Below are positions 3,072-37,475 of a stretch of DNA of 64,000 bases, piece by piece. The notes beneath the pieces are model-generated. The model was not told where the DNA came from. It ran no database searches and saw nothing but the letters and a program-made list of their open reading frames with translations. The stretch is from Gammaproteobacteria bacterium. Lineage in GTDB: Bacteria > Pseudomonadota > Gammaproteobacteria > Steroidobacterales > JABDMI01. The DNA lies in the NCBI GenBank assembly GCA_013001575.1, contig JABDMI010000036.1, positions 1,577 through 65,576 on the forward strand. The letters are read 5' to 3'. Position 1 is the stretch's first letter, and the number at the start of each line of letters is the position of its first letter. The position numbers and the translations under genes are program-made.

Positions 3072-3932
3072 ATGCGACCATGGCTATATTCCATTCTAAT
3101 TCTTACTCTGCTGTTGAGCGCTTGTGGTAAAAACGAGCCGGCAAAAACCGAGTACATTGAAAGCACCCCGAAAGTCATCACCATTCGCGAGTCATTGCAA
3201 ATGGCTATTGATGGTGAGCATCGCTCCGACAAAAATCGTGCACGTGACCAGTATCGACATCCTGCCGCAACCCTGGAATTTTTCGGGGTTAAACCCGAAT
3301 CCACGGTGGTTGAGCTATGGCCCGGCAGTGGCTGGTATTCGGAGATCTTGGGGCCGTATTTACGCGACAAAGGAACCTTTTATGCCGCAAGTTTTGGCAA
3401 TGTCAAAGAACCGGAGTATCGCGGGCGTTTACACAATAGTCTACTGAACAAATTCGCCACAGCTACCGAAGTTTATGGCAAACCCAATGTCACCACGCTT
3501 AATCCACCATTACAAACCTTGTTGGCACCATCCAATACAGCCGACTTTGTTCTGACATTCCGCAATGTACATAACTGGACCAAAGGCGAAGTGGATAAAA
3601 AAGTTTTCCAGGCTGCTTATCAGGCTCTTAAACCCGGTGGCGTATTCGGCGTGGTCGAACATCGTGCCCCCGAAGGTCGTGCGGTTGAAGATATGATGAC
3701 CTCGGGTTACATGACCGAATCCTACGTGATCGAACTGGCTGAAAGTGTTGGATTTAAACTCGCGGGTAAGTCTGAAGTGAACGCCAATCCAAAAGATACT
3801 GCCGAGCATGAAAAAGGTGTCTGGACACTGCCACCAAGTTTACGTTTGAAGGATGTGGATCGAGACAAGTATCTGGCGATTGGTGAAAGTGATCGCATGA
3901 CCTTGAAGTTTGTGAAACCGGCGAAGATGTAA
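3072..3932 (+). CDS. class I SAM-dependent methyltransferase, lipoprotein
   Basis: Signal peptide with lipobox (LLLSAC). VVELWPGSGWYSE resembles SAM motif I and LKPGGVFGVVEH resembles the post-I/II motifs. Confidence 0.75.
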   Translation: MRPWLYSILILTLLLSACGKNEPAKTEYIESTPKVITIRESLQMAIDGEHRSDKNRARDQYRHPAATLEFFGVKPESTVVELWPGSGWYSEILGPYLRDKGTFYAASFGNVKEPEYRGRLHNSLLNKFATATEVYGKPNVTTLNPPLQTLLAPSNTADFVLTFRNVHNWTKGEVDKKVFQAAYQALKPGGVFGVVEHRAPEGRAVEDMMTSGYMTESYVIELAESVGFKLAGKSEVNANPKDTAEHEKGVWTLPPSLRLKDVDRDKYLAIGESDRMTLKFVKPAKM

Positions 3933-3953: not shown

Positions 3954-4736
3954 TCATACTCTTCCATAAAAAGTCATTCTTGCTGATTTGGATAAGGCAA
4001 TTCCTGGCTCCGAGTTATAGGCTAGCACAACCAACATTCGTGTTGTTTCGCCTATAACCGGGGTTACACGATGCATTGCATTGCGACCTCGAAACAATAA
4101 TAAAGTACCTGCTTTCAAGCTTAATTTTTTCGCAGTAATTTCACCATCCAAAACCCTGGTAGCGATTGCATAATTCACATCTCCCGCATCTGCATCACGT
4201 ACATCTTTAACATACTCAAACTCACCGCCACTTTGCGGTTCCTGAATTAATAAAGTAATCGCGAATGATGAATTATCAAAATGCCATCCCAATTGCTGTC
4301 CTTTATCCGCATAATGCAAGTTGATGGATGACATCGAATCGGCATAAGGATGCAAAGCCTTTTCATTCAAAACCGAACACAGAAAGCTCTTGAATTCATT
4401 GGAGTTATACAATAAATGCAAGCACGAGTCTTGCGGGATCTGGTCGGTGGTAATACACCCTTTGGTGGAAGTTATTTGCCGGTTTCGAGGATGCCGGTCT
4501 GGAAAGTTTGAATCTGGCTCGGATAAATAAATATTATGCGTGCGTTCTGAAAAGTACGCTAAATGCTGTTGTTGCAAGCCTTCACGTCGAATTGATTCGA
4601 TCGAATTCCTGGTCAGAAAATCAGGTAACAACAATACACCATTTTTATCGAGAATATTTTTACACTCCACCTGAAAATCCGCATCACTCAGTGGGTGTTT
4701 TATAACATTTACAACATTTTGTAAGGAATTGGTCAT
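3954..4736 (-). CDS. Fe(II)/2-oxoglutarate-dependent oxygenase (hydroxylase-type HxD triad)
   Basis: 260 aa. WHFDN supplies the HxD, AMHRVTP a distal His, and LLLFRGRN a 2OG-binding Arg context. Confidence 0.6.
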   Translation of the reverse strand: MTNSLQNVVNVIKHPLSDADFQVECKNILDKNGVLLLPDFLTRNSIESIRREGLQQQHLAYFSERTHNIYLSEPDSNFPDRHPRNRQITSTKGCITTDQIPQDSCLHLLYNSNEFKSFLCSVLNEKALHPYADSMSSINLHYADKGQQLGWHFDNSSFAITLLIQEPQSGGEFEYVKDVRDADAGDVNYAIATRVLDGEITAKKLSLKAGTLLLFRGRNAMHRVTPVIGETTRMLVVLAYNSEPGIALSKSARMTFYGRV

Positions 4737-8397: not shown

Positions 8398-9201
8398 TCA
8401 GTGCTCCAATGATTCCAGCAGCGCAACAAACAGAGCCTCAAGACGTGTCTTGGCTTGAATGAAGCGTTGTGACTGAACAGCTAGCTGTGCATCACCTGCG
8501 TGTTCGGACTGCATATACACTTCCTGATTCATTTCTATTTGTAGCGCTTCAACGTTTGCGTCCTGCCCATAGTGATGGGTAATGTAACCGCCTTTGTATG
8601 GTTGGTTCTTTTGCACACTGAATTTGTGCTGCATAAATTCATCCGCAATCATTTGGGTCCATTGCCCGGAACAACTGTTTCCATCGCGATCGCCCAGATA
8701 AATATCTTTATCCAGTTCGGCGTGGATTAGGGTTGCCGACTTGGCAATACTGTGCAGATCGAACAAATACACTTTCCCATGCGCTTGCTGAAGACTTGTC
8801 AGGCATTGCTGCAAGGCACGGTGGTAAGGCACATGCACTTGTTGCGTATACAGATCTATTTGTTGTTGTGACGGATAACTGGAAAAGATGGATCGCCCCT
8901 GAAAATCTGAATCGGCGACCAATTTGGTCTCGAACCGACCCGGGTACAATTCCAATGGGAGGGGTGAGCGATTCATATCAATAACATAGCGACTGACATT
9001 CGCGGCGACCACACTTACCCCTAGACCTGGTAAAAAGTCGTATAGATGATACAAAAACCAATCGGTCATGGGCAAATGCGCCACGCTTTTATTCGCAAAC
9101 AAGACCCGGATGTCATCTGGTACATAGGTGCCGGAATGCGGAATACTCGCAAGCACGGGAAGTGCGGGTCCGACTGGCTGGGTCAAGGTAAAAGCTTGCA
9201 C
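8398..9201 (-). CDS. hutG: N-formylglutamate amidohydrolase
   Basis: 267 aa. FGase-family N-terminus (LASIPHSGTYVPDD). Lies 8 nt downstream of hutF inside a hut cluster. Confidence 0.85.
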   Translation of the reverse strand: MQAFTLTQPVGPALPVLASIPHSGTYVPDDIRVLFANKSVAHLPMTDWFLYHLYDFLPGLGVSVVAANVSRYVIDMNRSPLPLELYPGRFETKLVADSDFQGRSIFSSYPSQQQIDLYTQQVHVPYHRALQQCLTSLQQAHGKVYLFDLHSIAKSATLIHAELDKDIYLGDRDGNSCSGQWTQMIADEFMQHKFSVQKNQPYKGGYITHHYGQDANVEALQIEMNQEVYMQSEHAGDAQLAVQSQRFIQAKTRLEALFVALLESLEH

Positions 9202-9209
9202 AGTTTTCC

Positions 9210-10556
9210 CTAGACCATTTTCAAAGATCGCATCGTGGTAGCGAAGTCTTTTTCTATCTCATCTGCAAACACATGTTGCTGCCCATTGACCACTTGTTTA
9301 CCACCGACATACACCTCTTTCACCAGGTCTCTTGCCCCACCAATAACGGCCGCGTCCAGCATGCGTTCAACCGGTAAACCGTTGAGCGGGGCTCGCTTTG
9401 TATCCAGCACCACGATGTCGGCAAAATGCCCGGTTTGCAGTTCGCCTACAGTAAATTGCACTGCTTTGGCTCCAGCCTTGGCAGTCATATCCCAGAGGCT
9501 GTGGCCGATACCCTGACTGGAAGCCAGACGTGAACGCTTGCGACTGATCAAGCGCTGGTTGTATTCCAGAAAACGCATTTCACCCAGCGCATCAATACGC
9601 GTGTTACTGTCGGTACCTAGCGCAAAACGGCCACCCGACTGGAAAAACTGGGCAGCGGGAAACACCCCGTCGCCCAAATACGCCTCGGTATACGGACACA
9701 AAACAACTTGCGCATGCGCGCGCGCCAGAAGATCCATCTCGCGACCATTAATGTGGGTCGCATGGATCAGATTCCATTGCGAGGTCAAGGGCACGCTATC
9801 GGCCAGTAATTGCACGGGTGAGGCGTGATGTGCGCTGAGACAATCTTGCACTTCTTTTTTTTGTTCGGCGATGTGGATGTGCACCGGGAAATTTTTACCC
9901 AAAATGGCTTCGGCGTAATGTAAGAGCTTGGGAATATTTTCAATCGGGACGGCGCGTAATGAATGCGGCGCAACCCCGGTTGCCACATGTTTATTGCAAT
10001 GTTCAAGCAATTTGCAGTATTGCGACAAGGATGCGATCACAAAACGGTAATGTTCGGGTTGTGCGGGCAAGGTAAAACCGCCGCGCATGTACAAGACCGG
10101 CAACAGGCGCAATCGGATCCCGGTGTCGCGAGCAGCCAGAATGATGGCATCCAACATCGCAAGGGTGGCAGTGCCCTCCTTATCGTGATGCAAATAATGA
10201 AATTCTGCCACCGAGGTAAAACCGGCTTGCAACATTTCCATAAAGGCCTGGCGTGCAATGCCGTATAGCTGTTTTTCATCGAGTTGATTGGCCAGGGCAT
10301 ACATGCTTTGCCGCCAACTCCAGAAATTCTCATCGCCTTTTTTGAAATTCGGGATCTCGCCATAGCCGATCAAGGCACGCTGGAAACTGTGACTGTGCGC
10401 ATTGGGAATGCCTGGCAGGGCCAGACCGGGTCGGCAAATTGCCGCATTGGCGTCCGCGATACGGCTAATACGGCCTTCATTTCCGATGGTTATGGTCTGG
10501 TTTTCACGCAATCCATCCGGAGTCAGCACATATTGAAAACTCAATGATTCGGGCAT
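9210..10556 (-). CDS. hutF: formimidoylglutamate deiminase
   Basis: 448 aa. Amidohydrolase motif PGIPNAHSHSFQRAL. Size and hut context match HutF. Confidence 0.85.
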   Translation of the reverse strand: MPESLSFQYVLTPDGLRENQTITIGNEGRISRIADANAAICRPGLALPGIPNAHSHSFQRALIGYGEIPNFKKGDENFWSWRQSMYALANQLDEKQLYGIARQAFMEMLQAGFTSVAEFHYLHHDKEGTATLAMLDAIILAARDTGIRLRLLPVLYMRGGFTLPAQPEHYRFVIASLSQYCKLLEHCNKHVATGVAPHSLRAVPIENIPKLLHYAEAILGKNFPVHIHIAEQKKEVQDCLSAHHASPVQLLADSVPLTSQWNLIHATHINGREMDLLARAHAQVVLCPYTEAYLGDGVFPAAQFFQSGGRFALGTDSNTRIDALGEMRFLEYNQRLISRKRSRLASSQGIGHSLWDMTAKAGAKAVQFTVGELQTGHFADIVVLDTKRAPLNGLPVERMLDAAVIGGARDLVKEVYVGGKQVVNGQQHVFADEIEKDFATTMRSLKMV

Positions 10557-10595
10557 ACGGCTTATCTTGTGTCCTATTCCTGTTAGCAGCTTATA

Positions 10596-11852
10596 ATGAC
10601 TTTTTTATTTACCTGGATCAACCGGCCTGTGAAGCAACATAGCGATCAACAAAGCGTGCATGATCTGGTTATCCATAATGCACGATTGTACCCGATGTCG
10701 GGGAATATTGAGTGTTCCGAGTGTGATCAGATTGCGATTGATAATGGCCTGATCAGTTCGATCAGCAAAAGTCAGTCAGAGGGTGTTTTAGCCGCCCGCA
10801 CAAGCATCGATGCACAACAGCGCGTATTATTACCGTCTTTTATCGATTGTCACACCCACATTGTGTACGCGGGAGATCGCAGCGCAGAACATAACCAGCG
10901 CTTACGCGGGGTGGATTATGCCGAGATTCACGCCAGTGGCGGTGGCATCTACGCCACAGTGAACGCGGTTCGCAAGGCCGATGAGGCTGAATTGATCCAG
11001 CAAAGCATGCAACGCATCCAAGCCTTACAAAGCGAAGGTGTGACCACGCTTGAGATCAAAAGTGGTTACGGTCTGGATACTGATAATGAATTAAAAATGC
11101 TGGGTGCGATCCGCACCCTCAAGCAAAACCTGCCGATGAATATCGTGAGCACTTTCCTAGGCGCCCACACCATTCCCAAAAACACCACCCAGAATGAATA
11201 TCTTGATTTGATCATTTCCGAGATGTTGCCGCTTATTGCCAAACACGATCTGGCCGACGCTGTAGACATGTATGTTGAGAACATCGCTTTTGATAACGCA
11301 GCCATGACACAGTTATTTAAAGCCGCCCAAGACCTCAAGCTGAATACCCGGGTGCACGCCGAACAATTGAGTCATATGCGCGCTGCCGAAACGGCGGCCT
11401 CGCTGGGCGCCTTGAGTGCGGACCATTTGGAGTATCTGGATAAAGGTGGAGCGCGGGTTATGGGCGAACACGGCTGTGTTGCCGTTTTGCTACCCAACGC
11501 CTTTTACTTTCTGCAAGAAACCCGCAAGCCACCCGTCGCCTCGTTACGCAAACATAAGGTATCGATTGCTGTAGCCAGTGACACCAATCCCGGCACTTCA
11601 CCCATTCCAAGTTTGTTAACCGCATTGCATTTTTCGGTGCATTTGTTCGGTCTTGATTGCCAGGAAGCCTTATTGGGAATCAGCTTGAATGCAGCAAAAG
11701 CCCTGGGCTTGCAACAAAAGCTTGGCAGCCTCGAAGTCGGCAAACAAGCAGACTTGGCTTTATGGGACATCCCAGGCCCGGAGTTTTTATGTTATCAACT
11801 GGGTGGTTTGGGTCCCGACCAGGTTTGGCACAAGGGAGTAATGTGCCGTTAG
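10596..11852 (+). CDS. hutI: imidazolonepropionase
   Basis: 418 aa. Contains SFIDCHTHIVYAGDR, IKSGYGL and ASDTNPG, which are typical HutI motifs. Confidence 0.9.
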   Translation: MTFLFTWINRPVKQHSDQQSVHDLVIHNARLYPMSGNIECSECDQIAIDNGLISSISKSQSEGVLAARTSIDAQQRVLLPSFIDCHTHIVYAGDRSAEHNQRLRGVDYAEIHASGGGIYATVNAVRKADEAELIQQSMQRIQALQSEGVTTLEIKSGYGLDTDNELKMLGAIRTLKQNLPMNIVSTFLGAHTIPKNTTQNEYLDLIISEMLPLIAKHDLADAVDMYVENIAFDNAAMTQLFKAAQDLKLNTRVHAEQLSHMRAAETAASLGALSADHLEYLDKGGARVMGEHGCVAVLLPNAFYFLQETRKPPVASLRKHKVSIAVASDTNPGTSPIPSLLTALHFSVHLFGLDCQEALLGISLNAAKALGLQQKLGSLEVGKQADLALWDIPGPEFLCYQLGGLGPDQVWHKGVMCR

Positions 11853-11902: not shown

Positions 11903-13426
11903 ATGAGTAATATCATTACACTGACTGGCAATGACCTCAAGCTGGAACACATCCATGCGTGTTTTGCAGGACCAGTAAAGGCCCAACTGTGTGATAGCGC
12001 CAAAACCCGAATGCAACAAAGTGTTGATACAGTTGTTCGTGTCGTTACCGATAATAAAACCTGTTATGGCATCAACACCGGCTTTGGCGCATTCGCGAAA
12101 CAGAGTATTTCATCAAAACAAGTGCAACAACTACAGTTAAACCTGGTGCGCAGTCACGCCTGTGGTGTGGGCAATGAACTGGAACCCGGACTGGTGCGCG
12201 CAATAATGTTATTAAAAGCCAATAGTCTGGCACAAGGGGTGTCCGGGATCCGCCCACAAGTGCTTGAAACCTTATTGGCCTTGCTTAATAAGGATGTGAT
12301 TCCACGAATTCCCGCTCAAGGTTCGGTTGGCGCCTCGGGTGATCTTGCACCACTCGCACATCTTGCCTTGTGTTTGATCGGCGAAGGCAAGGCGCAACAT
12401 GCCGGGCAAACTTTGCAGGCTGAAAAAGTTTTGCATGCGGTCGGATGCAAGCCTGAAGTTTTACAAGCCAAGGAAGGACTGGCTTTACTCAACGGAACCC
12501 AGGTCAGTGCCGCCTTAGCAATGCAAGCGGCCAGACAAACCCGTGTATTACTCAAAACCTCGATCCTGGCGGGAGCCTTATCGGTGGAAGCCTTGTGCGG
12601 AAGTTATGCTCCTTTTGATGCGCGCATTCATCAGGTCAGAAACCTCGACACCCAGGCGCGCATTGCCGCGGCTTTTCGGAGTCTGTTAAGTGGCAGCAGC
12701 GTGAACCAGAGTCACACCGCCTGTGACCGGGTACAAGATCCTTACGCCCTGCGTTGCATGCCGCAAGTTTATGGTGCGGTTTTGGCCACACTCGAACACG
12801 CCGAAGAAATTCTGCAAAAGGAATGCAACTCTGTGTCGGACAATCCCTTGATCTTTGACGACGAGGTCTTATCAGGCGGTAATTTTCATGCGGCTCCATT
12901 GGGCTTTGTGAGTGATTTTCTGGCCATCGCATTGACTGAATTGGGAAATATGTCAGAACGCCGCACAGATTGTTTGTTGCGGCAGGTCAATCCGGCCTTG
13001 AATATGTTTTTAACCAGCTCGCCCGGGCTTGAGTCCGGATTAATGATGGCGCATGTCACCGCCGCCGCATTGGCGTCGGAAAACAAAACATTGGCGCACC
13101 CGGCTTCTGTGGACACCATTCCGACCTCGGCAGGCCAGGAAGACCATGTCAGTATGGCACCCTGGGCTGGACGTAAGTGTCTGAATATTTGTGAGAATGT
13201 TGTTAATATTCTGGCCATTGAGCTACTATGCGCCAGCCGTGGCTTGCACGCGCTGCTACCGCTGGAAACCACAGTCGAATTAAAACCCCTGCTTGCTACA
13301 ATTCAGTTATTGAGTGAAGACAGCTTGCAGGATCAGCCATTTGCTACTTGTATTCAGGCCCTGTCTAATGCGATTATGTCGCAAGCATTAATTACAAATA
13401 TAATTATCCAGGGTCGCAAGGCCTAA
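11903..13426 (+). CDS. hutH: histidine ammonia-lyase
   Basis: 507 aa. Has the MIO-forming GSVGASGDLAPLAHL motif. Confidence 0.95.
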   Translation: MSNIITLTGNDLKLEHIHACFAGPVKAQLCDSAKTRMQQSVDTVVRVVTDNKTCYGINTGFGAFAKQSISSKQVQQLQLNLVRSHACGVGNELEPGLVRAIMLLKANSLAQGVSGIRPQVLETLLALLNKDVIPRIPAQGSVGASGDLAPLAHLALCLIGEGKAQHAGQTLQAEKVLHAVGCKPEVLQAKEGLALLNGTQVSAALAMQAARQTRVLLKTSILAGALSVEALCGSYAPFDARIHQVRNLDTQARIAAAFRSLLSGSSVNQSHTACDRVQDPYALRCMPQVYGAVLATLEHAEEILQKECNSVSDNPLIFDDEVLSGGNFHAAPLGFVSDFLAIALTELGNMSERRTDCLLRQVNPALNMFLTSSPGLESGLMMAHVTAAALASENKTLAHPASVDTIPTSAGQEDHVSMAPWAGRKCLNICENVVNILAIELLCASRGLHALLPLETTVELKPLLATIQLLSEDSLQDQPFATCIQALSNAIMSQALITNIIIQGRKA

Positions 13427-13437
13427 AGGTTTAAATT

Positions 13438-14370
13438 ATGAGTGATCTGAGCCAAGAATTATTTCGACAGGTAATCGACCATTTTGATACCGGAATTATA
13501 GTGACCGAGAATCACACCTCGGACTGGTCGGTCTGTTATGTGAATTCGACCTTCACCGAAATGACCGGATACACCGAAGAAGATGTGCTGGGAAAAAACC
13601 CACGATTTCTACAGAATGACGACGAACAACAAGCCGCATTGTACGACTTGCATACCGCCTTGAATCAAAACACTTCTTGCACCGTGACCTTGCGAAATTA
13701 CACCAAAGACGGTGATGCTTTCTGGAATCGATTGACCATCCGACCATTATTGTCCAAAGAAGGCATCATCACGCACTATGTCGGCAGCATGAAAAACCTG
13801 GGCAAGATCACCAGCGATGAACTCGAAAGAGCTCGGCGTAAAGCCAACCATGTAACGGCCTTCCGTGACCAGCAAACCGGTTTATTCAATCAGGAATATT
13901 TTGAATCGCATTTTGTGCGTGACTGGCACTTGTGGTTGCGCGAGAAAAAAGACATCACATTGGTTATGTTCACCCCGGACCATTTCGAGATCTACAAAAA
14001 AACCTTTGGATTAGCCGCGGCTGAGTCAGCCTTGCGTAAGATCGCCTATCTGATCAATACCAATTTGCAACGTGCCAGTGATACCGTTGCCCGCTATAAA
14101 GAAAACAGTATTGTTGCTTTGATGCAAGGTGACTTCACCGAAGATAAACGCTATTTTCTAGACCAGATTGCCGACAAGATCCATGATCTGTGTGTCCATC
14201 ACCCGCATTCACCGGATGAACAGTATCTCACTGTGAGTTTGACCGCCGTTTCGGCCCAGCCGGACCATGATAAAAACCCGGGTGAGCTACTTAATAAACT
14301 GGTCACGCTGCACAACTCTCAAGACGTAAACAGCAACGCCCGTCAATTTTATGAGTACACCCCGCAGTAA
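13438..14370 (+). CDS. LOV-type PAS domain (Cys-less) fused to a degenerate GGDEF domain with a retained I-site
   Basis: 310 aa. GKNPRFLQ…NYTKDGDAFWN is the LOV signature with Cys replaced by Pro (CCA, 13600-13602). The C-terminal part aligns to GGDEF, with RASD-TVAR-Y-KENSI in place of RxxD-x4-Y-GGDEF. Confidence 0.8.
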   Translation: MSDLSQELFRQVIDHFDTGIIVTENHTSDWSVCYVNSTFTEMTGYTEEDVLGKNPRFLQNDDEQQAALYDLHTALNQNTSCTVTLRNYTKDGDAFWNRLTIRPLLSKEGIITHYVGSMKNLGKITSDELERARRKANHVTAFRDQQTGLFNQEYFESHFVRDWHLWLREKKDITLVMFTPDHFEIYKKTFGLAAAESALRKIAYLINTNLQRASDTVARYKENSIVALMQGDFTEDKRYFLDQIADKIHDLCVHHPHSPDEQYLTVSLTAVSAQPDHDKNPGELLNKLVTLHNSQDVNSNARQFYEYTPQ

Positions 14371-14403: not shown

Positions 14404-14859
14404 GTGTCAACGGCCATTCATAAAAAAGTCGCCGCGTGTAAAGCCGGAACCAATCCACAACTCATCACCCGTATGCCATCGGGCTGGTTAATTCTGGGCG
14501 ATGTGCAGTTCTTACACGGCTATTGTTTGCTAATGCCAGACCCGGTCGTACCGGATCTGAATGCGATGTCGTTGAAAAAGCGTAACGAATTTTTGCAAGA
14601 CATGAGTCTGGTCGGAGATGCCTTACTTGATGTCACCGCTGCAATACGAATCAATTACGAGATCCTTGGTAATCTGGAACCAGCATTGCATGGCCATATT
14701 TTCCCGCGATTCTCGGATGAAGACCCCGAACTAAAAACCAAACCCGTATGGTTCTATGATTGGGAAAATGCCAGAGCATTTGATGCAGATACGGACCAGG
14801 AAATAATGTTGAAAATTCGTAACCACCTGGAACAACATGGCCTTACTGAAAGTCAATGA
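14404..14859 (+). CDS. HIT-like (histidine-triad-fold) protein, putative
   Basis: 151 aa with a GTG start. ALHGHIFPR aligns to the HxHxHxx triad with the first His replaced by Ala. The assignment is by eye only. Confidence 0.45.
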   Translation: MSTAIHKKVAACKAGTNPQLITRMPSGWLILGDVQFLHGYCLLMPDPVVPDLNAMSLKKRNEFLQDMSLVGDALLDVTAAIRINYEILGNLEPALHGHIFPRFSDEDPELKTKPVWFYDWENARAFDADTDQEIMLKIRNHLEQHGLTESQ

Positions 14860-15464
14860 ATACTGTTTATCCGCCCAAATATCACCTGGAAACGGATGAG
14901 GAAAAGATTTTTCATGTGATCGAGCGCTTCCCCTTGGCGATCCTGATCTCCAGCAGCAACGATGAAATACAAACCACCCAAATTCCTCTTGTTCTTGACC
15001 GGGGATCGAAAACCCTTCTGGGGCACATAGATAAAAACAACCCACATGGCAAACTTCTCGATAACAGAAAAGTCTCGCTTGTGTTCAATGGGCCAAATGC
15101 CTACATTTCACCAACCACATATGCTGTAAGTGAATTACCCACCTGGAATTATATCAGTGTGCACGCAAGCGGAACTGTGACAACCATTCACGACTTCGAT
15201 AAAGTCAGTGATTCAATAATTGCCATGGCAGAATTTCTTGAAACAGAAGATAGTAATTATCAACTTGCTAAAGGTGACGAAAAGTTGAAAGCCCTGGTTC
15301 CCTATGTGACCGGATTTGAAATTGAAATTGATGAGATGATCGGCCGTTATAAATTGTCGCAGGATAAGTCCGCACAGGATACCGGTCTCGCCAGACAACA
15401 TCTGATTAACGCCAACAAACACGACCACACGGCCTTGCTTGATTATCTACTGGATACCCAATGA
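14856..15464 (+). CDS. paiB: FMN-binding negative transcriptional regulator PaiB family
   Basis: 202 aa. Contains LLGHIDKNNPH…FNGPNAYISP…PTWNYISVHASG, typical of PaiB. There is a 4-nt ATGA overlap with the upstream gene. Confidence 0.8.
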   Translation: MNTVYPPKYHLETDEEKIFHVIERFPLAILISSSNDEIQTTQIPLVLDRGSKTLLGHIDKNNPHGKLLDNRKVSLVFNGPNAYISPTTYAVSELPTWNYISVHASGTVTTIHDFDKVSDSIIAMAEFLETEDSNYQLAKGDEKLKALVPYVTGFEIEIDEMIGRYKLSQDKSAQDTGLARQHLINANKHDHTALLDYLLDTQ

Positions 15465-15943
15465 CAATAGACATACTGGTTGCCGACTACTCCAATCCAC
15501 AACACGCCAAAGATGTGGGGTTTTTATTGAATGAATACGCCAAGGACCCTATGGGTGCGGGCAAACCACTGGATACTGGCATCCAGGAAAAAGTCGCCAG
15601 CGAACTCGCCAAACAAGCCGGCGCATTCAGCGTGCTCGCTTATGTCGATGGCAAACCCGCTGCCTTAACCAACTGTTTGCAAAGTTTCTCAACATTCAAA
15701 TGCAAACCCCTGATCAACATTCATGACCTGGCTGTGGTCAAAGAATTTCGCGGCATGGGACTCAGTACCCGTATGTTGGAGAAAGTTGAAGAAGTTGCCA
15801 GAGAGCGTGATTGCTGCAAACTGACCCTGGAAGTGCTGGGTAAAAACATTCCTGCCAAGAAGTCATATCAAAAATTTGGTTTTAAGGCTTATGAGCTGGA
15901 TCCGATAGCGGGTGTGGCTGAATTTTTGGAAAAAGAGCTTTAA
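15461..15943 (+). CDS. GNAT-family N-acetyltransferase
   Basis: 160 aa. Acetyl-CoA motif A (VKEFRGMGLSTRML) and C-terminal KSYQKFGF. There is a 4-nt overlap with paiB. Confidence 0.85.
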   Translation: MTIDILVADYSNPQHAKDVGFLLNEYAKDPMGAGKPLDTGIQEKVASELAKQAGAFSVLAYVDGKPAALTNCLQSFSTFKCKPLINIHDLAVVKEFRGMGLSTRMLEKVEEVARERDCCKLTLEVLGKNIPAKKSYQKFGFKAYELDPIAGVAEFLEKEL

Positions 15944-36698: not shown

Positions 36699-36749
36699 AA
36701 CGCCCTTTTCTCTTATCTAATATTCCGTGAGGAATGTTGCTGACGGTTG

Positions 36750-37475
36750 ATGAATGCAAGCATGACTGATAAAAATAATTTCATTGGCATTTACCCCGAT
36801 TGTCTGAACGCGGAATTTTGCCAAACCCTGATCAACAAATTCGACAGTGACTCACGCACCTATCAAGGCCAAACCGGTCAAGGCGTAGACGCCAACAAGA
36901 AAGACAGTCTGGATCTCATGCTCGACCCACATCAAGACTGGCATGCGGAACTCAGCGCTATTCACCAGATAACCCTGCATGGGCTAATTCGATACGCCCG
37001 CGAATATCCACATTTTCTGGTCGGTGCATTGTCACTGAACTGGACACCCCCGGGTTCAAATCAGGCCAAAGAAATTCGAGCCGAGGATATTACTTCGATG
37101 GATGATAGTTTGTTGGCAAATTTCATTACCTCGGTATTTCGCTTGGGTAAAACCAATCTGCAAAAATACAATAAGGGGTCGGGCGGCTATCACCACTGGC
37201 ATTCCGAGCATTACCCGCACCCGCATGACGAGAGCAATGCGTCATTGCATCGCACCTTGTTGTGGATGTATTACTTGAATGACGTTGAGAAAGGTGGAGG
37301 CACTTCGTTCTATTACCAAAATCAGACCATTTCACCCAAGACCGGTACTTTGGTCATTGCGCCCGCGGGTTTTACGCATACACACAAAGGTGAGATTCCC
37401 GAGTCGAATGACAAATACATTTTGACTTCCTGGGTAATGTATAAGACGCGTGAGGAATTGTATAAGATCAAGTGA
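36750..37475 (+). CDS. putative 2OG-Fe(II) oxygenase-superfamily protein
   Basis: About 241 aa. GGYHHWHSEH…LLWMYYLNDVEKGGGTSFY…FTHTHKG resembles the small 2OG-FeII_Oxy_5/TIGR02466-type family. The start is ambiguous (36747, 36750 or 36762). Confidence 0.55.
   Translation: MNASMTDKNNFIGIYPDCLNAEFCQTLINKFDSDSRTYQGQTGQGVDANKKDSLDLMLDPHQDWHAELSAIHQITLHGLIRYAREYPHFLVGALSLNWTPPGSNQAKEIRAEDITSMDDSLLANFITSVFRLGKTNLQKYNKGSGGYHHWHSEHYPHPHDESNASLHRTLLWMYYLNDVEKGGGTSFYYQNQTISPKTGTLVIAPAGFTHTHKGEIPESNDKYILTSWVMYKTREELYKIK

Follow-up and report, generated by a model that had tools for sequence, protein, structure and literature searches.

A degenerate LOV-GGDEF protein encoded beside histidine catabolism genes in uncultured Gammaproteobacteria

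In this study, we examine a gene that lies among histidine catabolism (hut) genes of an uncultured gammaproteobacterium. The DNA analyzed is a 64,000-nucleotide stretch of contig JABDMI010000036.1 (assembly GCA_013001575.1), hereafter the window, and the gene is an intact open reading frame (ORF), here named X, which occupies positions 13438-14370 of the + strand, starts with an ATG 11 nt past the hutH stop codon (13426), and encodes 310 amino acids comprising a LOV-type PAS domain and a GGDEF-fold domain (Table 1). To judge from its sequence, X most likely descends from a LOV-GGDEF architecture like that of the LOV-activated diguanylate cyclases (LadC), a light-activated enzyme having turned into a soluble, two-domain, non-catalytic sensor or adaptor.

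Table 1. Features of X, of the neighboring genes in the window, and of distant relatives (coordinates of the relatives refer to their own loci)
Feature	Position	Strand	Evidence or remark
X, complete ORF	13438..14370	+	N-cap helix, LOV-type PAS, linker, degenerate GGDEF domain, variable tail
LOV-type PAS core, residues 19-121	13492..13800	+	Pfam PAS_9, YtvA_fam, PDB LOV matches 1e-23, AF2 model
Pro55 codon CCA	13600..13602	+	alignments; invariant in 16 orthologues
Met118 codon ATG at the I-beta active-site Gln position	13789..13791	+	alignments; M/L/I in orthologues, never Q
Inter-domain linker, residues 122-143	13801..13866	+	alignments; low pLDDT at residues 131-140
Degenerate GGDEF-fold domain, residues 144-286	13867..14295	+	Pfam GGDEF; WspR and 8C05 alignments; model TM 0.79 vs WspR GGDEF
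Arg168 codon CGC (WspR R198, secondary I-site Arg; MsLadC R174)	13939..13941	+	ungapped alignment
GLAAAE replacing the GHxxGD substrate-binding segment	14008..14025	+	alignment, orthologues
RASD, the RxxD inhibitory-site motif (R212 and D215)	14071..14082	+	five residues ahead of the former GGDEF motif
KENSI replacing GG(D/E)EF	14098..14112	+	alignments, orthologues
hutH, histidine ammonia-lyase	11903..13426	+	directly upstream of X; TIGR01225 618 bits vs cut-off 539
hutI, imidazolonepropionase	10596..11852	+	TIGR01224 395 bits
hutF, formimidoylglutamate deiminase	9210..10556	-	divergent from hutI; TIGR02022 449 bits
hutG-like N-formylglutamate amidohydrolase	8398..9201	-	Pfam FGase 9e-60; TIGR02017 under cut-off
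Peptidase_C92 (permuted papain-like amidase) domain protein, 447 aa	7054-8397	-	follows hutG
HIT-like protein, 151 aa	14404..14859	+	downstream of X; weak PDB HIT matches 7.6e-5; no Pfam or NCBIfam match
PaiB-like FMN_bind_2 protein	14856..15464	+	overlaps HIT-like gene stop; Pfam 1.2e-37
GNAT acetyltransferase	15461..15943	+	overlaps PaiB-like gene stop; Pfam 1.6e-15
hutU, urocanate hydratase, 666 aa	17626..19626	-	TIGR01228 403 bits, over cut-off
Distant Pro-type relatives of X, independent lineages	L007 9974-10978; L093 1220-2473; L095 6914-7927		

The two-domain organization of X is supported by profiles, solved structures, and modeling. Pfam places PAS_9 at residues 19-121 (9e-18) and GGDEF at residues 141-286 (1.3e-19), in agreement with a preliminary description of the locus that had named both domains, and all the motifs quoted in it (Pro55, Met118, GLAAAE, RASD, and KENSI) are present at their positions. 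The top full-length match among solved structures is 8C05 (E 1e-46), the dark-state structure of MsLadC, a LOV-activated diguanylate cyclase of Methylotenera sp. (PMC10396304, PMC12805367), with numerous short LOV proteins, YtvA, and the LOV domains of phototropins (1e-23 to 1e-17) next in the Protein Data Bank (PDB). The AlphaFold2 (AF2) model of X, made from the orthologue alignment, has a predicted local distance difference test score (pLDDT) of 79 and a predicted template modeling score (pTM) of 0.62. Its top Foldseek match is again 8C05 (E 1e-23), and compared domain by domain it gives template modeling (TM) scores of 0.76 to PpSB1-LOV and 0.79 to the GGDEF domain of WspR. X was aligned residue by residue with MsLadC (8C05), PpSB1-LOV, and WspR; in HMMER alignments P55 falls opposite the adduct Cys (of GKNCRFLQ) and M118 opposite the I-beta Gln (of GIQKD), with GLAAAE matched to GHTAGD, RASD to RGSD, and KENSI to GGEEF. 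The linker is of constant length among orthologues and 8 residues shorter than that of MsLadC; its C-terminal half is variable, with Pro present in several orthologues, and its residues 131-140 have low pLDDT in the model. Three NCBI proteins identical to X (MBT8142065.1, NNC97088.1, and NNM14075.1) are all named "diguanylate cyclase," a name that is contradicted by the degenerate active site and that, by this measure, is a misannotation.

The PAS half of X is of the LOV type, as the preliminary description had proposed. NCBIfam scores are 119 bits for YtvA_fam versus 63 for NifL and 59 for the generic sensory_box. An index-free, exhaustive HMMER search with this half over 1.84 billion representative proteins was followed by per-domain local re-scoring, since ranking by summed score gave mostly multi-PAS proteins. 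The nearest domains outside the X family (~80-104 bits) were overwhelmingly canonical GxNCRFLQ...GxQ LOVs with a minority of Pro variants, whereas family members scored at least 186 bits and form a well-separated branch. In a distance tree the family was monophyletic in 30 of 30 bootstraps, its commonest sister being Pro-type relatives (L093, P0155), although in only 10 of the 30. The scores, the search, and the tree together rule out a PAS domain outside the LOV clade. Moreover, F39TEMTGY45 and N87YTKDGDAFWN97 fit the LOV signatures FxxxT(G/E)Y and N(Y/F)xxx(G/D)xx(F/L)xN. A published LOV filter requires at least eight of the nine residues G59, N61, C62, R63, F64, L65, Q66, N94, and N104 of YtvA (PMC9098866); X has eight of them (G52, N54, R56, F57, L58, Q59, N87, and N97), the Cys alone being missing, and thus lies formally within it.

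In X, GKNPRFLQ stands against the adduct motif Gx(N/D)C(R/H)(F/I)L(Q/A), with Pro55 in place of the Cys. A sequencing error can be discarded, as had been argued earlier, because CCA is more than one change away from TGY and because all 16 full-length orthologues have Pro. The alignment revealed no adduct Cys in X; C33 and C81, both conserved, were considered as alternatives and rejected because by homology neither is expected near flavin C4a, C33 aligning with the outward-facing V40 of YtvA, beside pocket residue I39, and C81 being on the G-beta strand, six residues up from N87. The replacement of the I-beta Gln by Met118 was likewise borne out by the alignments, and the position is M, L, or I throughout the orthologues and never Q. 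The consequences drawn earlier from these two substitutions hold only in part. No photoadduct is expected with Pro55, but Pro-for-Cys LOV domains are a described class that includes the flavin-binding BAT-LOV* (PMC4682037), and the Gln-to-Met change, though real, is not disabling by itself, since a Met-containing LOV-GGDEF protein is still light-regulated (PMC9098866).

The pocket itself is well kept. All five polar flavin-binding residues of YtvA, N61, R63, Q66, N94, and N104, have sequence counterparts in X (N54, R56, Q59, N87, and N97) that are invariant in the family; in LOV domains the equivalent residues hydrogen-bond the isoalloxazine and the phosphate. Of 21 positions homologous to flavin contacts, 14 are invariant, versus 30 of the 83 others in the core (Fisher p = 0.011). 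The difference persists when the least certain contact is left out (13/20, p = 0.021), and for the hydrogen-bonding set plus positions 55 and 118 seven of eight are invariant (p = 0.0096). At or near the pocket there are also two family-specific invariants, H72 in place of the phosphate-binding Arg/Lys and W30 in place of Asn. That the pocket is more conserved than the rest of the LOV core indicates that a functional ligand pocket has been kept, and flavin appears to be the most economical ligand for it.

With regard to the GGDEF half, the alignment of X with WspR is ungapped, so that residues can be mapped directly. X has T179 for WspR D209 (an invariant Thr in the family), E184 for K214 (E, D, or N), K187 for the guanine-binding N217 (K, T, R, or A), L192 for H222 (highly variable), E196 for D226 (E or D), and KENSI, from K221, for GGEEF (x-[DE]-[NDH]-S-I, where x is K, Q, or Y). 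At the level of motifs, DxD is TPD and GHxxGD is GxAAAE or GxSAAD in the family, and DxLT is D144-Q-Q-T in X. Altogether, replacements have affected the two glycines and the two acidic residues, as well as the first Asp that binds metal, the Asn that binds guanine, and the NRR turn, in line with the earlier proposal that cyclase chemistry was lost, and the substrate-binding positions are also variable among orthologues. In contrast, R168 (WspR R198, MsLadC R174), R212 (R242, R218), and D215 (D245, D221) are invariant and constitute a complete inhibitory site (I-site) for cyclic di-GMP (c-di-GMP), the same residues as the c-di-GMP-contacting set of WspR. The RxxD motif at canonical spacing had been noticed before; the secondary Arg, R168, adds to it. 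Substrate positions that are replaced and variable beside an I-site that is invariant indicate that catalysis was abandoned while the allosteric surface stayed under selection. Taken with the loss of the adduct Cys, X almost certainly forms no Cys-flavin photoadduct and synthesizes no c-di-GMP.

The degenerate protein is not confined to the window. Its family comprises 17 protein clusters (52-100% identity) in a 5.8-billion-sequence collection, with further orthologues in two more species-level genomes and in one more metagenome contig (L092, the sole gain of the metagenome scan). Three species-level genomes carry X, including the metagenome-assembled genome (MAG) of the window, and all sources are MAGs of uncultured Gammaproteobacteria or metagenome assemblies. 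Every one of the 16 full-length members has Pro55, a residue other than Gln at 118, and the degenerate signature at GGDEF, and none departs from the R, S, and D of the RxxD motif (RSSD in one member). The ratio of nonsynonymous to synonymous substitution rates (dN/dS) is 0.01-0.05 where dS is measurable, as in the pair L001 and L005 (dN 0.025, dS 1.19), synonymous sites being saturated for most pairs. The proportion of nonsynonymous differences (pN) is 0.17 in the PAS and 0.21 in the GGDEF domain versus 0.38 in the linker and 0.46 in the tail. This strong purifying selection, tighter on both domains than on the linker and the tail, indicates that the degenerate protein is functional.

Relatives at 31-34% identity (L007, L093-L095) also combine a Pro-type LOV-like domain with an RxxD motif and a GGDEF signature that is degenerate (TDEVRF, EGASV), and none of these four is linked to hut genes. 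The relative in L007 lies in a GH3-MscS-phosphoribosyltransferase (PRTase)-nucleoside phosphorylase operon, where it overlaps the stop codon of the PNP_UDP_1 nucleoside phosphorylase gene, and has the derived motifs FAPD, TFGxxAADS, and RASD in common with X. Among the PAS relatives retrieved, exact GKNPRFLQ was seen in 279 genome-encoded and 222 metagenome-encoded proteins from many phyla (loci L008-L084, L096-L171). The I-beta Gln is still present in many of them, and fusions with intact GG[DE]EF cyclases are numerous, which indicates that Pro-type domains are working sensors; to judge from the motif, GKNPRFLQ domains are a large, essentially uncharacterized class of Cys-less LOV-like sensors.

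The hut genes are the constant partner of X. In a synteny check by tblastn of the window's neighbor proteins against every locus fetched, X was directly beside a hut gene in 16 of 16 orthologue loci, which extends the linkage noticed in the preliminary description to all of these loci. The position directly downstream of hutH, whose identity is confirmed by its profile score (Table 1), is found in the window and in L002-L004, L085, and L088-L091, but X follows hutI in L001, L005, L006, and L092 and diverges from hutF in L086 and L087. Behind X, most loci have the block of HIT-like, PaiB-like, and GNAT genes; L085, L088, and L089 lack it and have a convergent gene downstream of X instead (parC in L085 and L088), and in L091, where PaiB is missing, the block is altered. 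As the block is missing or altered in four loci while hut adjacency is universal, it was rejected as the primary partner of X. A consensus scan of the + strand revealed no terminator-like site between hutI and the GNAT gene. Moreover, no HutC/GntR regulator was encoded in the cluster or among the ~30 window ORFs scanned, which are not every ORF, and no operator common to the hutF/hutI and hutF/X gaps was found.

Several further observations concern these gaps and the neighboring genes. A -10-like TTATAATG at ~10590-10597 in the hutF/hutI gap is conserved in L001, L003, L005, L006, and L092. The hutF/X gaps of L086 (~3600-3640) and L087 (~850-890) contain a perfect 10-bp inverted repeat, CTAGTTAATT-N19-AATTAACTAG, which may be an operator, and a TATAAT box lies near X in the same intergenic region. 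The true start of hutI is probably GTG 10656 rather than ATG 10596, because orthologue matches begin at residues 18-21 and the N-terminus MxDLVIHNARLYPM is common to all. The HIT-like, PaiB-like, and GNAT genes are translationally coupled through ATGA overlaps at 14856-14859 and 15461-15464, and an ABC-F ATPase gene stands between the GNAT gene and hutU. The hutU product has an N-terminal extension of ~90 amino acids, TIGR01228 matching only from residue 95. A Peptidase_C92 gene follows hutG in several orthologous loci as well (L001 902-2248, L003, L086) and may be an accessory gene of the hut cluster. Elsewhere in the window there are two 2-oxoglutarate (2OG)-Fe(II) oxygenase-type proteins, at 3954-4736 (-) and 36747-37475 (+), the former matching the carrier-independent halogenase families HalD and WelO5.

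How might such a protein work? About 70 Cys-less LOV-like domains, in which Ala, His, or Pro takes the place of the Cys, have been reported (Yee et al., 2015, PMC4682037). One of them, BAT-LOV* with Pro in that place, binds flavin adenine dinucleotide (FAD), flavin mononucleotide (FMN), and riboflavin, is slowly photoreduced and readily reduced chemically, and changes conformation on reduction (PMC4682037). With moderate confidence, we propose that the LOV pocket of X still binds flavin and works like these LOV* domains, in which case it would report flavin reduction, whether by cellular redox or by slow photoreduction to the semiquinone, through a conformational change. With the same moderate confidence, we place the output in the dead GGDEF domain, whose intact I-site (R168, R212xxD215) would bind c-di-GMP, dock against the LOV dimer in the manner of dark-state LadC, or do both, and so let X bind or release a partner. 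From synteny, X would be co-transcribed with hutI and hutH and hence made during histidine catabolism, and would couple this pathway to redox or light and c-di-GMP signaling or, conversely, tune hut activity. The gene order points to a putative regulatory link to histidine breakdown rather than to an enzyme role. The complete package, a dimeric flavin-binding LOV* sensor of flavin reduction with a dead GGDEF output that acts through its I-site surface and is co-expressed with hut, seems to us evenly poised between right and wrong.

A number of points weigh against this proposal. The flavin contacts used for the conservation statistics were mapped onto X, with an offset of 395, from what we take to be the contacts of AsLOV2. 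The changes at W30 and H72 could reflect a ligand other than flavin, and with Pro55 and a hydrophobic residue at 118, neither of the two residues through which protonation of flavin N5 is read is left. BAT-LOV* expressed in E. coli had a modest flavin content only (PMC4682037), and a Gln-to-Pro change abolished signaling in YF1 and NmPAL, though at a different position from that of Pro55 (PMC9098866). With regard to the output, conservation of the I-site does not prove c-di-GMP binding, as the RxxD loop and R174 belong to the LOV-GGDEF inhibitory interface of MsLadC. A continuous, register-switching coiled coil of the LadC kind is doubtful in X in view of its shorter linker, the Pro in several orthologues, and the low confidence of the model there. 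At the level of expression, the terminator and promoter scan of the locus gave sites no more often than in shuffled sequence, and co-transcription is thus putative. We infer all that goes beyond the architecture of X.

It is possible that X is a docking adaptor with no c-di-GMP role at all, the RxxD loop and R168 being kept for the intramolecular LOV-GGDEF interface and the state of the sensor releasing or sequestering the dead GGDEF domain, which would serve purely as a module for conformational change or protein contacts. In LadC the RxxD loop is also a LOV-docking surface and its replacement relieves dark-state inhibition (PMC10396304, PMC12805367), and the homologous R168, R212, and D215 are invariant in X. 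The earlier suggestion of a c-di-GMP receptor acting through the I-site has to be qualified on the same ground: the triad is invariant, but in view of its double duty in LadC its retention alone carries no implication of c-di-GMP binding. However, the LOV-side partner of R174, MsLadC D44, is not conserved (T, S, N, V, A, or D in the X family), the short linker with its Pro in some orthologues perhaps does not keep the LadC geometry, and the three residues coincide exactly with those that contact c-di-GMP in WspR. We regard a pure docking role as unlikely, if far from negligible.

Alternatively, the pocket of the PAS domain could now serve a ligand from the pathway (urocanate, histidine, imidazolone propionate, or formiminoglutamate, for example) in place of flavin, which would make X a sensor of hut metabolites. 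The universal hut adjacency, the substitutions in or close to the pocket (P55, M118, and the family-specific invariants W30 and H72), and the lack of a HutC/GntR gene in the cluster and the other ORFs scanned would all fit such a sensor. However, a small imidazole acid would hardly account for the invariance of N54, R56, Q59, N87, and N97, our literature searches returned no precedent for a LOV-type pocket with such ligands, and urocanate in particular is without direct support; we consider the proposal improbable. A wider version, a long shot in our estimation, makes X the pathway-specific regulator of histidine catabolism in these marine gammaproteobacteria, in whose hut cluster no HutC is encoded. 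Its LOV pocket would sense flavin redox, light, or a hut intermediate, and its dead GGDEF domain, depending on c-di-GMP, would bind one of the Hut enzymes or a factor of transcription or translation. If true, it would mean post-translational, second-messenger-gated control of amino acid catabolism by a former photoreceptor-cyclase.

A slender chance remains for X as a genuine blue-light receptor acting through the semiquinone, which would connect light with the metabolism of histidine and urocanate in bacteria of the surface ocean. Cys-less VVD and YF1 do signal via the semiquinone (PMC4682037), and the Gln is dispensable, a natural Met variant being light-responsive (PMC9098866). However, X is without both Cys and Gln, a combination for which there is no documented case of signaling, and photoreduction in vivo requires a reductant and low oxygen. 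Finally, that X is an active cyclase with a non-canonical motif or a decaying pseudogene is highly implausible: the NCBI name and the activity reportedly retained by some near-canonical variants such as AGDEF (PMC3974145) are outweighed by the replacement of every catalytic feature listed above, and the intact ORFs in all orthologues with their low dN/dS exclude a pseudogene.

If the proposed flavin-sensing, I-site-bearing adaptor is correct, X would be a natural case of a complete sensor-enzyme becoming a non-enzymatic signaling adaptor while its fold, pocket, and allosteric site were kept, and a central route of nitrogen and carbon catabolism would be linked to c-di-GMP and to flavin/redox or light sensing. 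For LOV research, X offers a conserved natural domain without Cys and Gln, a probe of what the LOV pocket does minus both readout residues. The family is rare and comes from uncultured bacteria only, which limits its immediate impact, and it flags systematic misannotation as "diguanylate cyclase."

Among known systems, MsLadC is the closest to X, with ~34% full-length identity, a similar size, the same domain order of N-cap, LOV, helical linker, and GGDEF, and FxxxTGY, NYxxxGxxFxN, RxxD, and the Arg equivalent to R174 in common. MsLadC is a light-switched enzyme with the adduct Cys, the Gln, DxLT, and GGEEF, whereas in X these are Pro, Met, DQQT, and KENSI, the linker is 8 residues shorter, with Pro in some orthologues, and the hut context is fixed. 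By the LadC criteria of Vide 2023, X lacks the LOV Cys motif, DxLT, and GG(D/E)EF. BAT-LOV* resembles X in its LOV-type sequence and in the Pro at the adduct-Cys position, and a response to flavin reduction is proposed for X as well. BAT is a large archaeal REC-GAF-HTH regulator, and BAT-LOV* was selected as keeping all other strictly conserved LOV residues; in X, the active-site Gln is gone too and the domain is fused to a dead GGDEF. About 350 Gln-less LOV receptors have been reported (Dietler et al., 2022, PMC9098866), among them a natural Met-containing LOV-GGDEF-EAL protein of Mesorhizobium loti that is still light-regulated, an active cyclase repressed by light (PMC9098866). It has the Met at the Gln position and the LOV and GGDEF domains in common with X, but the adduct Cys and cyclase activity belong to the M. 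loti protein only.

For the output half, the models are receptors such as PelD, PopA, Bdellovibrio CdgA, and Listeria PssE, which use the I-site of a degenerate GGDEF domain and whose targets include Pel synthesis, cell-cycle proteolysis, and exopolysaccharide. Like X, these proteins have lost GG(D/E)EF and have RxxD at canonical spacing and the secondary Arg. Their partner domains are REC, GAF, or membrane domains, whereas X has a LOV-type sensor and lies in a catabolic operon, and its binding of c-di-GMP is putative. Degenerate GGDEF domains that keep the I-site are established c-di-GMP receptors (e.g., PMC3271064, PMC4125290). With regard to the hut context, our literature search returned no report of a LOV or PAS-GGDEF gene in hut operons, and searches for "NPRFLQ" and for histidine ammonia-lyase with diguanylate cyclase and LOV returned nothing. 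In Pseudomonas aeruginosa, the promoter of the c-di-GMP phosphodiesterase gene arr is a binding site of HutC (PMC12977541), and this provides some precedent, at the transcriptional level, for a link between hut and c-di-GMP. Taken singly, Pro-for-Cys LOV* domains, Gln-less LOV domains, and degenerate GGDEF receptors with an I-site have already been described; what has not been described before is their union in X, a LadC-derived scaffold with Cys replaced by Pro and Gln by Met, a dead active site, a kept I-site, and fixed linkage to hut.

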